Of a stretch of DNA of 64,000 bases, positions 40,973 through 64,000 are shown one piece after another. The translations under genes and the position numbers were made by a program. Source of the stretch: Escherichia phage JLBYU50; sequence record OK272470.1. One strand, 5' to 3'. The stretch's first letter is position 1, and every line of letters begins with the position of its first letter. Under the pieces are notes generated by a model, which worked only from the letters and a program-made list of their open reading frames with translations, did not search any database and was not told where the DNA came from.

Positions 40973-41950
40973 TTAAGCAACAGCCTGGTCTTCTTTTTCA
41001 GGGAAGATTAAACTTGCAATAACACCCAACCCAAGAGTACCTAACACAATATACATACTGATCGTCGGATCAATGTGTGCTGGTAGGAAACTCACTTTTG
41101 CGTGCAGAGTTTCTGCAAACGGGTGATACATCAGTTTTACACCCACAAATACCAGGACTACGATAACTGCTTTCTCCAGATGAACCAAATACTTCAGTGC
41201 AACACTAAGAACAAAGAACAGAGCGCGTAAACCTAAGATTGCACAGAGCATCGAAGAGAACACCAGCAGAGGTTCTTGTGTCACTGCAATTACTGCTGGA
41301 ACAGAGTCTACTGCAAAGATTACGTCAACCATTTCCATTACAAACACACAAACCAGAGCCGGAGTTGCTACACGAACACCATTTTTGATTGTGAAGAACT
41401 TCTCACCATCCATCTGATCAGATACAGGGAACAGCTTACGAACAATGCGAGTAGCCCAGTGTTTAGAGTAATCAACTTCTGCATCATTATCTCCAGCGAA
41501 TACCATTTTAGCCGCACAGAAAAGGATGACAGCACCGAAGAAGATATTAACATACCAGCCCAAACTCAACAAGTAAGTACCTACTGCTACAAACACACCT
41601 CGGAAGACAATCGCACCTGCAATACCCCAAAGTAGAATCTTGTGTTGCAAGTGTGTGCTTTTAATACCAAAACTTGCGAATACTGCCACAAATACTACTA
41701 AGTTATCTACAGAAAGAGATTTCTCCAACACATACCCACTCAAGAACAAACTCGCAAAATCAGCACCGTGTTGGAAGTATACAAAACCATAGTAGGCTAA
41801 TGATACCCCAATCCAGAAAATTGACCAACCAACTGCCGATTTAAATGAAATCTCTTTGTTTTCTCTGTGTCCAAAGAAATCAATACAAATCGACAACACT
41901 AAAATACCCACTAAAACAACCACATCAATAATTGGGAAACCCAGTTGCAT
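40973..41950 (-). CDS. TerC-family integral membrane protein
   Basis: Multi-TM 325-aa protein with duplicated signature LEKSLSVDNLVVFVAVF and FAVDSVPAVIAVT. Confidence 0.75.
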   Translation of the reverse strand: MQLGFPIIDVVVLVGILVLSICIDFFGHRENKEISFKSAVGWSIFWIGVSLAYYGFVYFQHGADFASLFLSGYVLEKSLSVDNLVVFVAVFASFGIKSTHLQHKILLWGIAGAIVFRGVFVAVGTYLLSLGWYVNIFFGAVILFCAAKMVFAGDNDAEVDYSKHWATRIVRKLFPVSDQMDGEKFFTIKNGVRVATPALVCVFVMEMVDVIFAVDSVPAVIAVTQEPLLVFSSMLCAILGLRALFFVLSVALKYLVHLEKAVIVVLVFVGVKLMYHPFAETLHAKVSFLPAHIDPTISMYIVLGTLGLGVIASLIFPEKEDQAVA

Positions 41951-41968
41951 TCTTTTCTCCTCTTTAAT

Positions 41969-41987
41969 GCGGAGGACAATCCTCCGC
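41969..41987 (-). promoter_or_regulatory. hairpin in 5' leader of TerC-family gene
   Basis: gcggagg-acaat-cctccgc stem-loop immediately upstream of the RBS gaggag. Confidence 0.35.
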
Positions 41988-42027
41988 TCTATGTCTTATA
42001 CTATAAACTGTTTTTAAAGAAAGTCAA

Positions 42028-60553: not shown

Positions 60554-60772
60554 TATTTTGAAAATTTTTATTTTTATAAAAAGGGGTGTGGGTTTCATGT
60601 ACGGAAATTCACCCTCTGCACAGTATATCCAGAGTAAGTAGTATTCTATACCCTGTTAATAAAGTATTTAATTTGTTTGTTGGACTATGGTATCTGATCT
60701 TTAAAAGGCATACTATCTCTTAACTACTACTTATAACAGAACAGTAAAATCATTTTTATAAAAAGTACAAAA

Positions 60773-60969
60773 TTATTTAAAGTTTTTACAGATTTTTGGG
60801 TACAAATTTTGAAAATGAAAAGTTCAAGTTTGGTCAAAATTATTTAAAGTTTTTGTACGTATTTCTATTCAGATTTTGAAAATGAAAACTTCAATTTTTT
60901 AAAAATTCCCCAGTTTATTTAAAGTTTTTTTGCCTTTTTCCGTAGAAAAATCAAAAATGAAAAGTTCAA
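60773..60969. repeat. three tandem copies of a composite element (ttatttaaagttttt - 21 nt - TTGAAaatgaaaagTTCAA)
   Basis: Unit A at 60773, 60840, 60915; palindromic unit B at 60809, 60876, 60951; A-to-B spacing 36 nt in each copy. Confidence 0.7.
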
Positions 60970-60992
60970 TTTCGTGTTTTTATAGGTGTGTT

Positions 60993-61050
60993 AATGAGAA
61001 TCATTTTCGTTTGTAAATGAGAATCATTAGCAAATGAGAATTTTCTCATT
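60993..61050. repeat. three copies of palindromic site AATGA-gaa-TCATT
   Basis: aatgagaatcatt at 60993-61005 and 61016-61028; extended palindrome aatgagaattttctcatt at 61033-61050. Confidence 0.65.
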
Positions 61051-61286
61051 TAGAGAATAACGCGCAGGGGTGGTGTTTGTCTCGCGCTCCCGTGTCCCCT
61101 CGCCATACAATAAGAATAGCATAACCAACAACAAAAGCAAGCGATTATTTTTATCTTTACATTTCTTTACAAATTTATTTTGGACGAGCTACCGGCGATC
61201 AACCTTCCAACCAGTGCCCCCTGGTATGTTAGCCCCGCCTTTACGCCGTGGGGGTGGCGTTTCCTCTTCTGTATGTAAAACAGTAT

Positions 61287-61320
61287 AAGCCCGATCCCTG
61301 GGCTTGTCAATATTATTTTT
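61287..61320. terminator. stem-loop aagccc-gatccct-gggctt with T-run on + strand
   Basis: Hairpin followed by gtcaatattattttttgtttt on + strand; overlaps 3' end of - strand ORF 61313..61579. Confidence 0.35.
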
Positions 61321-61579
61321 TGTTTTCTTGCCAGGATAGGACACCTAACCAAAAATACATGTCGCCCCGCGCCCCTGGCGGGATCTTGCTTTCCCCGCCG
61401 CCACTGCAAGCCCATAGATAACCATTTACGAACGTATCAAAGTGATCTATCTCTTCCACCTTATGATCGCCCAGGTTGAGAACGGTTTCAACCTTTAAGC
61501 CCGTTGCGCTTGCTACCTGGTGCACCGTGCCGCCTTGCCAGCCCAATGAGTGCATGAGATGTAAAGGAGTATTTGTCAT
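61313..61579 (-). CDS. hypothetical protein encoded in GC-rich islet
   Basis: 88-aa ORF, RBS aaaggg; own sigma70-like promoter; GC content visibly higher than phage average. Confidence 0.45.
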   Translation of the reverse strand: MTNTPLHLMHSLGWQGGTVHQVASATGLKVETVLNLGDHKVEEIDHFDTFVNGYLWACSGGGESKIPPGARGDMYFWLGVLSWQENKK

Positions 61580-61626
61580 GGTATCGCCCTTTCTTTGATG
61601 TGCGCCCTGGTTGGCGCGGTAGAAAG

Positions 61627-61655
61627 ATAATAGCCGTTTCCTTTATAGATAGCAA
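61627..61655 (-). promoter_or_regulatory. sigma70-like promoter for ORF 61313..61579
   Basis: On - strand TTGCTA, 17-nt spacer, TATTAT. Confidence 0.45.
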
Positions 61656-61691
61656 GCAAAAAAGAAATGAAAAAAAGATTAAAAAAAATGG

Positions 61692-61720
61692 TTGACGTTC
61701 CTCACCTGGTAGCGTAGTAT
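61692..61720 (+). promoter_or_regulatory. sigma70-like early promoter
   Basis: TTGACG, 17-nt spacer, TAGTAT, upstream A-tract. Confidence 0.55.
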
Positions 61721-61773
61721 TCATCTTGTCGAGGGGGCAATAGTGCCGCTCATAACAGAAGAGAGAAATAATC

Positions 61774-62046
61774 ATGGCATCATATAGCGCATCAATGATC
61801 GTAACGGGTATCACTGGTAAACCTATGCGCGGTGGCGGATCTTTCGCTAACATCAACATTGACGGGCGTTTATCCCTGGACGCAGCGATCACAGTGGCAC
61901 GGGAAACATTTAAAAAAGAATGTAATTTCAATAAACAAGATTATCTCGGTTTCGCTATTGAAAAAACCGCGCGCTTTGTGGATTATAAAAGCCCGAAAAT
62001 GATCGACACTACACTAAAAGCGCAAGATGTAGCGTTTTTGCTTTAA
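61774..62046 (+). CDS. early protein, unknown
   Basis: 90-aa ORF with RBS gagaga; downstream of promoter. Confidence 0.45.
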   Translation: MASYSASMIVTGITGKPMRGGGSFANINIDGRLSLDAAITVARETFKKECNFNKQDYLGFAIEKTARFVDYKSPKMIDTTLKAQDVAFLL

Positions 62047-62049
62047 GGT

Positions 62050-62077
62050 TTGACACTGAAAAATAATTGGGTAATAT
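62050..62077 (+). promoter_or_regulatory. sigma70-like early promoter
   Basis: TTGACA, 16-nt spacer, TAATAT. Confidence 0.55.
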
Positions 62078-62132
62078 ATACGACATAAGGCGGGGAAATG
62101 GTTTCCCGCCAAATCAAAGAAAGGGTAATGCA

Positions 62133-62495
62133 ATGAGCAAGCAAATCAATACTATCATGTTTAATCTGGTATCTTTCCGCGATGACGTGAAAAACCTTTC
62201 GCGTGATGCAGTGGATGCACGGATCGAAAGCTATCGCACACAGATCGCAACGTTACCGCTGAAACGTGATCAACATGCCGCTAATATGATGCTGGATGCT
62301 ATGATTAAAAAGATGATTCAGTGTGATATTACCCTGGCTTATGAATATGCTGGCGATCTCTTTGTAACATATAGCAAGCCCGTTCCAGGTATGAGCACCA
62401 CGGAAGAATTGCATGCCTTAAATCTGCGACAAGATGCATGGGATAACATGCGCCGTGTTATGGTATGGGTAGAAAGCGGTAAAATTTACGAATAA
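62133..62495 (+). CDS. early protein, unknown
   Basis: Start reassigned to ATG at 62133 (RBS aaaggg); upstream track extension lies inside promoter. Confidence 0.45.
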   Translation: MSKQINTIMFNLVSFRDDVKNLSRDAVDARIESYRTQIATLPLKRDQHAANMMLDAMIKKMIQCDITLAYEYAGDLFVTYSKPVPGMSTTEELHALNLRQDAWDNMRRVMVWVESGKIYE

Positions 62496-62501
62496 AAACG
62501 G

Positions 62502-62530
62502 TTGACATTGCACTAAAACCTGATAAGCTA
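62502..62530 (+). promoter_or_regulatory. sigma70-like early promoter
   Basis: TTGACA at 62502-62507, TGaTAAGCT extended -10-like element. Confidence 0.5.
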
Positions 62531-62573
62531 TCTTAAAGCGGGAACTATTCCCGCTTACATAGGATAAAACTTT

Positions 62574-62720
62574 ATGAAACAATATGTAATGAGTATTCAT
62601 ACCAAAAACGGCGCTACTGTTACGACTCCGGCACGGTTTGCACTTGTAAACCGTTGCAAGAGACTAAAACGAGAGCTAAAAAATAACCGTGCAACGGGCT
62701 TTAAACGCTGGGGAGGATAA
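62574..62720 (+). CDS. small basic protein (48 aa, not in ORF track)
   Basis: ATG at 62574 after aggat RBS; Arg/Lys-rich. Confidence 0.35.
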   Translation: MKQYVMSIHTKNGATVTTPARFALVNRCKRLKRELKNNRATGFKRWGG

Positions 62721-62722
62721 TC

Positions 62723-62983
62723 TTGTTTTTTCTAAAAGTTTTTGATAATGTGATCGCTTTTGAACATGCTACAACGTTCGACCTGGCGAGATACGCTATC
62801 AGGTTTAAAGATAATGTTTATCCCCGTGCTGGCGGCGGTTACACTATTTTTAATCATCGCAACGCGCAACTGACTGATGTAACTAATCCAGATCCTGGAG
62901 TGTATCGCATAGGCTGGCTACCGTCAAAAGACGCTGCAAGCATGTTTAAGGTGTGTAAACTACTAACAGAAGAGGCGAACTAG
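62723..62983 (+). CDS. early protein, unknown (TTG start)
   Basis: RBS ggagga before TTG at 62723. Confidence 0.4.
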   Translation: MFFLKVFDNVIAFEHATTFDLARYAIRFKDNVYPRAGGGYTIFNHRNAQLTDVTNPDPGVYRIGWLPSKDAASMFKVCKLLTEEAN

Positions 62984-62984
62984 C

Positions 62985-63539
62985 ATGGGGCGTGAATATG
63001 TGATCCAGTCCTGGGTAAAGCATGATGCTAATGATCCGCGCATAATACCAGATGACATGATCGATCACATGGTAGGGTATAGCGGGGAGCAGATAGGAAA
63101 TCGAGCGGCAAAGAGCAACGGCAACACCAGGACGCGATCCGTTCGTCCTGGATGGCTGGCGAATGGTAACGCTGACATTGCAAGCGCCGCAGATCCAAGC
63201 GATGACGCTAAAAATAATCCCTTGTACAGCATTGATCCGGCTTTTAAGGTGTTGGAAGAGTATCCCGCTAAATTAGCCGCACTAGATAAGGCATACGAAG
63301 AAAAGCGCATGGCCTGGACTGTATACAACACCGCTAAAATGGTGCTAGATGCAAAACTAATTAAAGCCCAGGAGAAGATCAATAAACTTGTTACCATAGC
63401 GCAAGAGGAAGACCAGGGCGACCAGGAGGAAGAGGAAGAAATCATGCCTACCCTGGAAGAGGAAGAGATCCAGCCATACATGCCGACGGAAGAGGAAAAA
63501 AGACAAGCCTTAAAAAATTATGAAAATTGCATTGTGTAA
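62985..63539 (+). CDS. early protein with acidic C-terminal tail
   Basis: 184 aa; C-terminus QEEDQGDQEEEEEIMPTLEEEEIQ. Confidence 0.5.
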   Translation: MGREYVIQSWVKHDANDPRIIPDDMIDHMVGYSGEQIGNRAAKSNGNTRTRSVRPGWLANGNADIASAADPSDDAKNNPLYSIDPAFKVLEEYPAKLAALDKAYEEKRMAWTVYNTAKMVLDAKLIKAQEKINKLVTIAQEEDQGDQEEEEEIMPTLEEEEIQPYMPTEEEKRQALKNYENCIV

Positions 63540-63542
63540 GGG

Positions 63543-63571
63543 TTGACATATGCAAACAAGCCCCGTAATAT
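63543..63571 (+). promoter_or_regulatory. sigma70-like early promoter
   Basis: TTGACA, 17-nt spacer, TAATAT. Confidence 0.55.
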
Positions 63572-63619
63572 GTACCACATAGAGCGGGGCAACTTCTCAA
63601 AGGTGAAATAAAAAATCAG

Positions 63620-63647
63620 TTGACACCTGAAATCAGTAAGCTATAAT
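63620..63647 (+). promoter_or_regulatory. sigma70 consensus-like early promoter
   Basis: TTGACA, 16-nt spacer, TATAAT. Confidence 0.6.
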
Positions 63648-63684
63648 GCTTATATAGATTGAAACATTACTAAGGAATAAAAGC

Positions 63685-63864
63685 ATGGCTATTATTGCGA
63701 AGACTGAGATCGTAGGTTTAAATTCTATCCTCCTGGCATATGAGGAAGCTATAGAAATGTATGTGGTTTCCTATGGTGATTATATCCGTGAATATAATTC
63801 TATTGATCTAGCTTTTGAATGCTATATTCGCCAGGTAAATAAAGCATACGATGATTATCGTTAA
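63685..63864 (+). CDS. small early protein (59 aa, not in ORF track)
   Basis: RBS aaggaa before ATG at 63685; downstream of tandem promoters. Confidence 0.4.
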   Translation: MAIIAKTEIVGLNSILLAYEEAIEMYVVSYGDYIREYNSIDLAFECYIRQVNKAYDDYR

Positions 63865-63884
63865 AAGTTTTAGTCTTGTGCTAT

Positions 63885-63912
63885 TGACAACGAACGATAG
63901 TACAAGCATAAT
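63885..63912 (+). promoter_or_regulatory. sigma70-like early promoter
   Basis: TTGACA, 16-nt spacer, CATAAT. Confidence 0.5.
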
Positions 63913-63959
63913 AACTTTTATCGGGAACACTCCTAACTAATCAAAAGAGATTAAAGATT

Positions 63960-64000
63960 ATGGCTAAAAATATTAATGTTTCTGCTTATGCTACCCTGGC
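63960..64000 (+). CDS. 3'-truncated early ORF (runs off window)
   Basis: ATG at 63960 downstream of promoter. Confidence 0.3.
   Translation, partial: MAKNINVSAYATL

Follow-up and report, generated by a model that had tools for sequence, protein, structure and literature searches.

Promoter-early stem-loop cassettes (PeSLs) have been described in the T4-like phages RB49/phi1, T4/PST, and KVP40/nt-1 (Arbiol 2010, PMC2839356; Comeau 2014, PMC4122927). They are repeated intergenic cassettes of ~100 bp that comprise an AT-rich tract, a consensus sigma70 promoter, a GC stem-loop, and a ribosome-binding site; they are concentrated in variable regions rich in ORFans and lie at the deletion or replacement boundaries of close relatives, with crossovers in or beside the stem-loop. 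These traits recur in Escherichia phage JLBYU50 (record OK272470.1), of which we analyzed a stretch of 64,000 nucleotides (nt), hereafter the window. Positions 61650 to 64000 of the window are the opening 2.3 kb of a ~10-kb plus-strand array of small ORFan genes. As judged from sequence, this array is PeSL-like in concept and differs from PeSLs in geometry and sequence.

Sigma70 promoters in front of small phage genes have been reported for relatives and are ordinary by themselves. In rV5 (PMC3606486, record DQ832317), annotated sigma70-type promoters cluster in the small-gene region, and the paper on the Certrevirus phages CB7/CR3 (PMC7344957) places a concentration of promoters in a "likely early gene region." These Vequintavirinae resemble the array in having consensus host-type promoters, some with A-rich upstream elements, amid short hypothetical open reading frames (ORFs), and rV5 carries two copies of the leader hairpin described below. 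In contrast, the phage studied here belongs to another subfamily, and the two papers, in their passages on promoters or stem-loops, report promoters and terminators only, with no conserved leader hairpin or recombination role. Our addition is to recognize the repeated unit as a PeSL-like cassette whose leader hairpin is both distinct and conserved.

Between 61600 and 64000, the window is 96 to 98% identical to many Justusliebigvirus genomes (Stephanstirmvirinae, phi92-like, ~147 kb). According to the annotation of three relatives (alia, EC.P2, and J-01), the array continues for ~8 kb past the window end; the cassettes make up ~14% of the array. The ORFs in 61650 to 64000 encode 90, 120, 48, 86, 184, and 59 amino acids (aa), and a seventh is truncated by the window end; we call them genes A to G in this order.

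Strong host-type promoters precede the small genes

Six promoter-like sites on the plus strand of 61650 to 64000 are all intergenic and oriented as the genes: promoter 1 at 61692 to 61720 (TTGACG-17-TAGTAT), promoter 2 at 62050 to 62077 (TTGACA-16-TAATAT), promoter 3 at 62502 to 62529 (TTGACA-16-TAAGCT, with a weak -10), promoter 4 at 63543 to 63571 (TTGACA-17-TAATAT), promoter 5 at 63620 to 63647 (TTGACA-16-TATAAT, scoring 12/12), and promoter 6 at 63884 to 63912 (TTGACA-17-CATAAT). A-rich tracts lie directly upstream of the sites at 61692 (aaaaaagattaaaaaaaatgg), 62502, and 63620. A first-pass annotation of this DNA had claimed at least six sigma70-type sites with 16- to 17-nt spacers and a host-type promoter architecture before small genes, and both statements are borne out. 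Its further claim of a promoter for each gene went too far: genes D (86 aa) and E (184 aa) are packed directly behind gene C (48 aa) and share its promoter, promoter 3, whereas promoter 4 belongs to an orphan cassette with no ORF ahead of the next promoter.

The density of strong sites was compared with that in 2000 dinucleotide-preserving shuffles of 61650 to 64000, plus strand only. Sites scoring at least 10/12 numbered 4 against 0.32 expected, and none of the shuffles reached 4; with the cutoff lowered to 9/12 and the -35 required to score 5/6 or better, there were 7 sites against 1.13, and TTGAC[AG] hexamers numbered 7 against 1.06, again with 0/2000 shuffles reaching the observed counts. 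Strong sites occur at 1.7/kb in 61650 to 64000 versus 0.31/kb in the rest of the window, a 5- to 6-fold difference. We also scanned a 134-kb composite of the window and the rest of EC.P2, which represents ~90% of the genome; the ~14 kb of structural genes outside the composite were covered by a promoter-plus-GCGG pattern search over the EC.P2 loci. In the composite, the array is the densest promoter cluster, with 19 strong plus-strand sites in 12 kb versus 0 to 3 per 4 kb elsewhere.

Evolutionary comparison points the same way. We compared six promoters of the window/EC.P2 with their orthologs in Phapecoctavirus nieznany, which is ~80% identical in the array genes. Identity is 97% in the -35 element, 78% in the -10 element, 55% in the spacer, and 84% in the first 90 nt of the coding sequence. 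Both hexamers of promoter 1 are identical in nieznany while the spacer differs; the ortholog of promoter 2 keeps its hexamers and matches at only 6/16 spacer bases. Hexamers that are conserved while spacers drift are the pattern expected of functional promoters.

The opposing explanation, that the sites are chance matches in AT-rich DNA, could draw on a looser generic scan (at least 9/12, both strands), which showed no enrichment (8 sites versus 6.3 ± 2.3 expected). We consider it exceedingly improbable, given that the counts of strong plus-strand sites were never reached in the shuffles, that six of six sites are intergenic and co-oriented with genes, that hexamers are conserved over diverged spacers, and that the rV5 record annotates equivalent sites as promoters; the shuffle test and the nieznany footprint together refute it. 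By the same two results, the sites score above the background that the first-pass annotation had named as its yardstick. Thus, the promoter signal resides in strong, strand-consistent sites, and the six sites are real promoters in the statistical and evolutionary sense.

A conserved hairpin family follows the array promoters

Across the full array, ~15 of ~22 promoters are followed by a hairpin of one family, which starts 6 to 14 nt after the -10. The complete cassette spans ~100 bp and consists of an A-rich tract, a sigma70-type promoter (TTGACA-N16/17-TAnnnT), the GC hairpin, a ribosome-binding site ~15 to 20 nt further on, and ATG; in EC.P2, the leaders are stereotyped, with the hairpin beginning 9 to 14 nt and the ATG located ~50 to 55 nt after the -10. 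The most frequent hairpin is GGCGGGAAAtggTTTCCCGCC, and variants include GGGCGGCAatagTGCCGCTC and AGCGGGAAtagTTCCCGCT. A descriptor of the family (GCGG, 1 to 5 pairs, a loop of 3 to 6, CCGC) retrieved 14 hairpins in the array, 12 of which have a detected -10 8 to 13 nt upstream; one of the other two has a weaker promoter, TTGCAA-16-TAAACT. In the window, the descriptor found three hairpins (6 hits counting both strands, versus 0.53 hits expected), each 8 to 12 nt after a -10 and facing the downstream gene. When the promoter was included in the search pattern, the window had 3 copies versus 0.01 expected.

The first-pass annotation had noticed stable hairpins in several leaders, and in two of them this holds. 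The hairpin at 62089 to 62110 (GGCGGGGAAatggTTTCCCGCC) starts 11 nt after the -10 of promoter 2, with a folding free energy (dG) of -15.6 and no T-run; that at 62536 to 62556 (AAGCGGGAActaTTCCCGCTT) starts 6 nt after the -10 of promoter 3, with dG -16.3 and a z score of -6.2. The others do not fit that description. The hairpin after promoter 1, at 61733 to 61751 (GGGGGCAATAGTGCCGCTC), is damaged (dG -10.6, z score -1.5). Behind promoter 4, only the left half AGCGGGGC of a lost hairpin remains at 63583 to 63590; its right arm is gone and the window copy has no stable fold, while relatives have GGGGCaacGCCCC at this position (L001, 14202; L002, 3347). A vestigial hairpin (CGGGAAcacTCC) lies downstream of promoter 6, and the leader of promoter 5 has none; neither of these two leaders (after 63884 and 63620) stands out in stability. 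The six window cassettes thus include two with intact hairpins and two or three with degenerate ones. What the first-pass annotation did not include is that the hairpins are one conserved, repeated element tied to the array promoters and that the promoter-hairpin units are recombination joints.

The promoter-plus-GCGG pattern occurs in 13 copies in alia, 13 in EC.P2, 12 in nieznany, and 2 in rV5, and is absent from the other three EC.P2 loci. In rV5, the hairpin retains its position, 10 nt after the -10, although the sequence in between is unrelated. One further cassette lies outside the array on the minus strand of the window, at 41948 to 42027 (TTGACT-16-TATAGT, 12 nt, GCGGAGGAttgTCCTCCGC, a ribosome-binding site, and ATG). 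A scan of IMG/VR for GGCGGGAANNNTTCCCGCC returned 115 loci, mostly unrelated hairpins, and an adjacent promoter was present only in rV5-like contigs. A 37-nt blastn query, within the sensitivity of so short a probe, detected no copy in 5,426 E. coli genomes, and Rfam gave only subthreshold chance hits (E ≤1 for window 58 to 64 kb; E ≤0.1 for 14 kb of a relative).

These cassettes and PeSLs part ways in the placement of the stem-loop. In PeSLs, it lies within or overlaps the promoter, usually separating the -35 from the -10 or covering the -10, and three RB49 PeSLs that we read directly have it in the spacer (TTGACAggggatcacgtatccccTATACT); a minor PeSL subclass has a stem-loop downstream of the -10 (PMC2839356). 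Here, in contrast, the hairpin is placed consistently past the -10, inside the predicted transcript, has an unrelated sequence with a GCGG..CCGC base, and has no T-run. The leader-type pattern had 0 hits in 50 kb of RB49. The lineages also differ (Stephanstirmvirinae here, Straboviridae for the PeSL phages). Terminator or attenuator activity and excised mini-circles are further attributes of PeSLs. A literature search combining the PeSL term with "stem-loop" and "phage" returned nothing on the phi92-like group.

The original PeSL proposal suggests another role for the hairpins, as terminators or attenuators, with each gene expressed mainly from its own promoter. An RB49 PeSL stem-loop lowered lacZ expression to the same degree as the terminator rrnB T1 (PMC2839356), and the present hairpins are likewise GC-rich and intergenic, with one copy right after a stop codon and without a promoter. 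However, no copy is followed by a T-run, the next 8 nt being A-rich instead, and 61650 to 64000 contains 0 terminator-like sites versus 2.1 expected; the hairpins do not have the signature of an intrinsic (Rho-independent) terminator. When GC-rich hairpins were surveyed across the 134-kb composite, the GCGG/CCGC family was confined to 62.0 to 70.1 kb and always lay 7 to 14 nt after a -10, while a second class consisted of ordinary A/T-flanked terminators (AAAGGGGC..GCCCCTTT) scattered genome-wide. The array has three canonical terminators of its own, at composite 66137, 70529, and 71702, and a terminating hairpin in the leader would attenuate the transcripts of its own promoter too. We therefore rate this explanation as improbable.

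The stem combines an invariant base with compensated apical pairs

The MAFFT alignment of leaders misaligned the stem arms between copies; because the two arms were not aligned consistently, we tabulated the pairs of 22 distinct hairpins (four phages), starting at the invariant base and moving outward, without a covariance model or covariation tool. The four base pairs of GCGG/CCGC are invariant with one exception. At pair 5, GC occurs 14 times, CG 4 times, and AT and TA once each; at pair 6, AT occurs 14 times and GC 7 times. Loops vary freely. The covarying apical pairs above an invariant base indicate that compensatory change keeps the pairing and that the base of the stem is constrained in sequence. 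With stems of only 6 to 10 bp, the hairpins were rejected as RNase III processing sites.

One rival explanation is that the hairpin is a recognition site for a phage or host factor. It could be an RNA operator in every early leader, used in timed repression, cleavage, antitermination, or translational control, or, at the DNA level, a palindromic operator spanning about +5 to +26 through which the early promoters are all turned off at once. The constancy of the 4-bp GCGG/CCGC base, the 5' flank CA(T/C)(A/G)TAG, which is often conserved, and the presence of the same base in rV5, a phage of another subfamily, fit such a site, as do its fixed position downstream of promoters, its restriction to one co-regulated gene set, and the lack of a host counterpart in the E. 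coli search above. On the other hand, no candidate binding protein was identified, one-third of the array promoters have no such element, and the apical stem and loop vary with compensation, which favors read-out of structure over sequence and disfavors a DNA half-site operator. On balance, recognition by a factor seems unlikely to be what the hairpin is mainly for. A more specific version, in which the GCGG/CCGC hairpin tags early transcripts for a dedicated phage factor and so forms a hitherto unrecognized posttranscriptional switch common to phi92-like and rV5-like coliphages rather than a passive stabilizer or a scar of recombination, is speculative and in our judgment doubtful; the factor may be an endoribonuclease, an RNA-binding repressor, or an N-like antiterminator.

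Cassettes are joints of gene loss, replacement, and reordering

Comparison with close relatives places recombination breakpoints in the cassettes. The window and EC.P2 lack 260 to 290 bp that are present in alia and nieznany between the first two cassettes, and both ends of this deletion fall inside the two hairpins. The first cassette of the window is thus a chimera, with the promoter of cassette 1 and the right hairpin half and ribosome site of cassette 2, and the damaged stem at 61733 to 61751 is the joint of the two ancestral cassettes. A second difference from alia, at composite 69108 to 69265, has the same makeup, with one cassette's promoter fused to the hairpin of the following cassette. 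Similarity to nieznany breaks off at 61752, 62109, 62510, 65025, and 65596, all within cassettes, and blocks of similarity to alia also end at cassettes. Gene order differs as well: it is A, B, C, D, E, F, G in the window and x, A, D, E, y, B, F, G in nieznany, in which gene B has been relocated. The leader of gene F has been swapped, being hairpin-bearing in nieznany and unrelated here. Thus, we conclude that the cassettes are joints at which genes are deleted, replaced, and reordered between relatives.

Another rival explanation is that the promoters are real but the module is dispensable accessory or anti-defense cargo rather than a host-takeover unit. Each gene would then have its own promoter because it was acquired as a mobile cassette, and the hairpin would persist mainly by hitchhiking in the recombination repeat. 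The variable gene content and order among close relatives agree with this, as do the sharing of genes B and F with unrelated rV5-like and jumbo phages and the three degenerate hairpins of the window, which show that hairpins decay without gene loss. Yet most array genes are conserved across Justusliebigvirus and Phapecoctavirus, and the compensatory changes in the 22 distinct copies argue for selection on the hairpin; we regard mere cargo as a minority possibility.

Proposed early transcription and the 5' end of the predicted messages

We lean toward an interpretation in which the array of repeated promoter-hairpin cassettes serves early transcription by the host RNA polymerase, the hairpin acts mainly as a 5' stabilizer, and the homology of the cassettes permits shuffling. 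Unmodified host RNA polymerase would initiate at many places along the array as soon as the DNA enters the cell and, with no terminator for several kb, would produce overlapping transcripts. The hairpin would lie within a few nt of each predicted mRNA 5' end and would serve mainly as a stem-loop that shields the message from RppH and RNase E; within read-through transcripts, it would form an intergenic barrier to exonucleases. The repeated cassette would provide homology for recombination, so that shuffled genes keep their own expression signals, as proposed for PeSLs.

Protection by a 5' stem-loop is a general principle reviewed in PMC3997798, which covers the 5'-terminal stem-loops that stabilize ompA, papA, and other E. 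coli mRNAs. The array leaders resemble these in having a stable hairpin, predicted to be within a few nt of the 5' end, and in leaving the ribosome-binding site free. They differ in that the hairpin is repeated, conserved in sequence, and common to many genes, and in that the 5' ends are predictions.

Several observations weigh against this account. We took a hairpin within ~0 to 4 unpaired nt of the 5' end as the mark of a 5' stabilizer; with +1 predicted ~7 nt after the -10, the 5' tail would be 0 to 7 nt, which is borderline for protection. About one-third of the array promoters have no hairpin, gene F does without the one it has in nieznany, so that the hairpin is dispensable for some genes, and the EC.P2 copy directly after a stop codon would be internal to an mRNA. 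The constancy of the GCGG/CCGC base exceeds what stability needs and hints at specific recognition. A test for selection on the sense-strand RNA, comparing G.T with A.C pairs, gave 11 versus 7 (2 versus 2 in a stricter count). Finally, the array is transcribed toward the genome end, unlike in T7.

The position of the array in virion DNA bears on its timing. BME3, another Justusliebigvirus, is reported to have 342-bp direct terminal repeats, determined with PhageTerm (PMC12210895). By alignment, the BME3 record has identical 342 bp at its start and end, and its array lies at 1.5 to 11.2 kb, transcribed toward position 1; the last ~11 kb of packaged DNA is therefore taken up by the array, a position that favors an early role as circumstantial evidence. 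SPO1, T5, and T7 have terminal host-takeover or pre-early modules. With these modules, which include the T5 pre-early genes (PMC13250531), the array shares many small genes, strong host-polymerase promoters, and placement at the physical terminus of a linear, terminally repeated genome; it differs in lying outside the 342-bp repeat and in being transcribed toward the end. Our literature search found no RNA-seq or transcript timing for phages of the Stephanstirmvirinae or Vequintavirinae. The authors of the papers on rV5 (PMC3606486) and CB7 (PMC7344957) inferred that the corresponding regions are "likely early," and we infer early timing and host takeover for the array. The first-pass annotation had taken the region for a host-takeover module and its products for candidate inhibitors of host processes; this interpretation is plausible and, through the promoters, supported in part.

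Phages of the phi92/rV5 type are in wide use in therapy cocktails and in the BASEL collection. If this account holds, these coliphages carry their most variable genes as plug-and-play units of promoter, conserved 5' RNA element, and ribosome site. The idea of PeSLs as "mobile regulatory cassettes" would then extend beyond T4-like phages and would account for the movement of small ORFan genes between unrelated coliphages without loss of expression, and the array would be a compact natural set of strong promoter and 5' untranslated region parts. The cassette signature also delimits a probable early accessory gene set in >130 sequenced genomes, the likeliest place for host-takeover and anti-defense genes.

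Products of the array genes

All seven products examined belong to PHROG families of unknown function, and sequence searches of Pfam, NCBIfam, and the PDB with the array products in the window gave no significant match. Gene A (61774 to 62046, plus strand, as are all that follow) encodes 90 aa with an isoelectric point (pI) of 9.2 (phrog_8099, function unassigned in PHROG). The product of gene B (62133 to 62495; 120 aa, phrog_7352) has homologs in rV5-like phages and jumbo phage 121Q. Its AlphaFold2 (AF2) model has a predicted local distance difference test score (pLDDT) of 92 and is a compact helical bundle with a small sheet, for which Foldseek found no neighbor in the PDB (best E value, 0.87). 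Several records label protein B a "membrane protein" although the model is such a compact bundle and sheet.

Gene C (62574 to 62720; 48 aa, phrog_8393), with a pI of 11.7 and a charge of +10.6, and gene E (62985 to 63539; 184 aa, phrog_16605), with a pI of 4.6, a charge of -14, and an acidic C-terminal tail, account for the two strongly basic or acidic products that the first-pass annotation had mentioned. The AF2 model of protein E (pLDDT 68; predicted template modeling score 0.36) is of low confidence except for a helical hairpin at residues 86 to 144. Between them, gene D (62723 to 62983; 86 aa, TTG start, phrog_17947) is annotated in EC.P2 as the same 261-nt coding sequence; like E, it has no promoter of its own. 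Gene F (63685 to 63864; 59 aa, pI 4.3, phrog_9374) and its flanks are 73 to 74% identical to jumbo coliphages, and gene G, which starts at 63960 and is cut at 64000 by the window end, encodes 121 aa in relatives. The array products are probably accessory early proteins for host modulation or anti-defense.

Divergent neighbors and flanking DNA

The left boundary of the array is a divergent minus-strand promoter at 61627 to 61655 (TTGCTA-17-TATTAT). It is followed by a leader hairpin, GCGCC..GGCGC, at 61617 to 61602, by a ribosome-binding site, and by an 88-aa ORF (61579 to 61313, phrog_19316), which has this promoter to itself and is transcribed divergently from the array. Repeat analysis showed that the leader and ribosome-site region of this ORF is the reverse complement of the gene B leader. 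A second minus-strand promoter at 61282 to 61310 (TTGACA-17-TATACT) has a hairpin, AAGCCCAGGGATCGGGCTT, in its spacer and is the only site here with the geometry of RB49 PeSLs. It faces ~230 nt without an ORF; a small RNA downstream of it was considered and rejected, as the folding energy is ordinary (z score, 0.02) and energy alone gives no support.

The adjoining stretch at 61050 to 61310 is GC-rich and has no ORF. The largely noncoding region 60989 to 61699 is 89.5% identical to nieznany, versus 72 to 82% for the adjoining protein genes. Further left, an ORF-free stretch at 60752 to 60972 contains three direct repeats of 67 to 75 nt (TTATTTAAAGTTTTT ... TTTTGAAAATGAAAAGTTCAA), which are annotated as a repeat_region in alia and are not conserved in nieznany.

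On the far side of the array is a 1.7-kb gap (L002 11500 to 13240) that is AT-rich, has many short repeats, and holds the physical genome end and the terminal repeat; beyond it lies a second block of small genes, tightly packed and with few promoters. No tRNA genes were found, including in this gap. Noncoding DNA flanking the array on both sides, at window 60986 to 61050 and L002 11740 to 12890, contains repeats that resemble the Fur box of E. coli, which we take to be GATAATGATAATCATTATC. The window copy has three tandem (T/A)AATGAGAATCATT units, and GTTAATGAGAATCATTTTC matches 16/19 bases of that box; EC.P2 has a near-perfect ATGCAAATGATAATCATTATC and a second copy inside the counterpart of the BME3 342-bp terminal repeat. 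These repeats could equally be packaging or replication signals.

Some database records with matches to this DNA name other hosts. About 20 "Campylobacter phage" records (MG065645, MG065689, MG065639, MG065656, and others) match this E. coli phage at 98% identity over the query, and "Enterococcus phage heks" (MT119359, 39.7 kb) contains gene B and a cassette; these records are likely mislabeled or contaminated.

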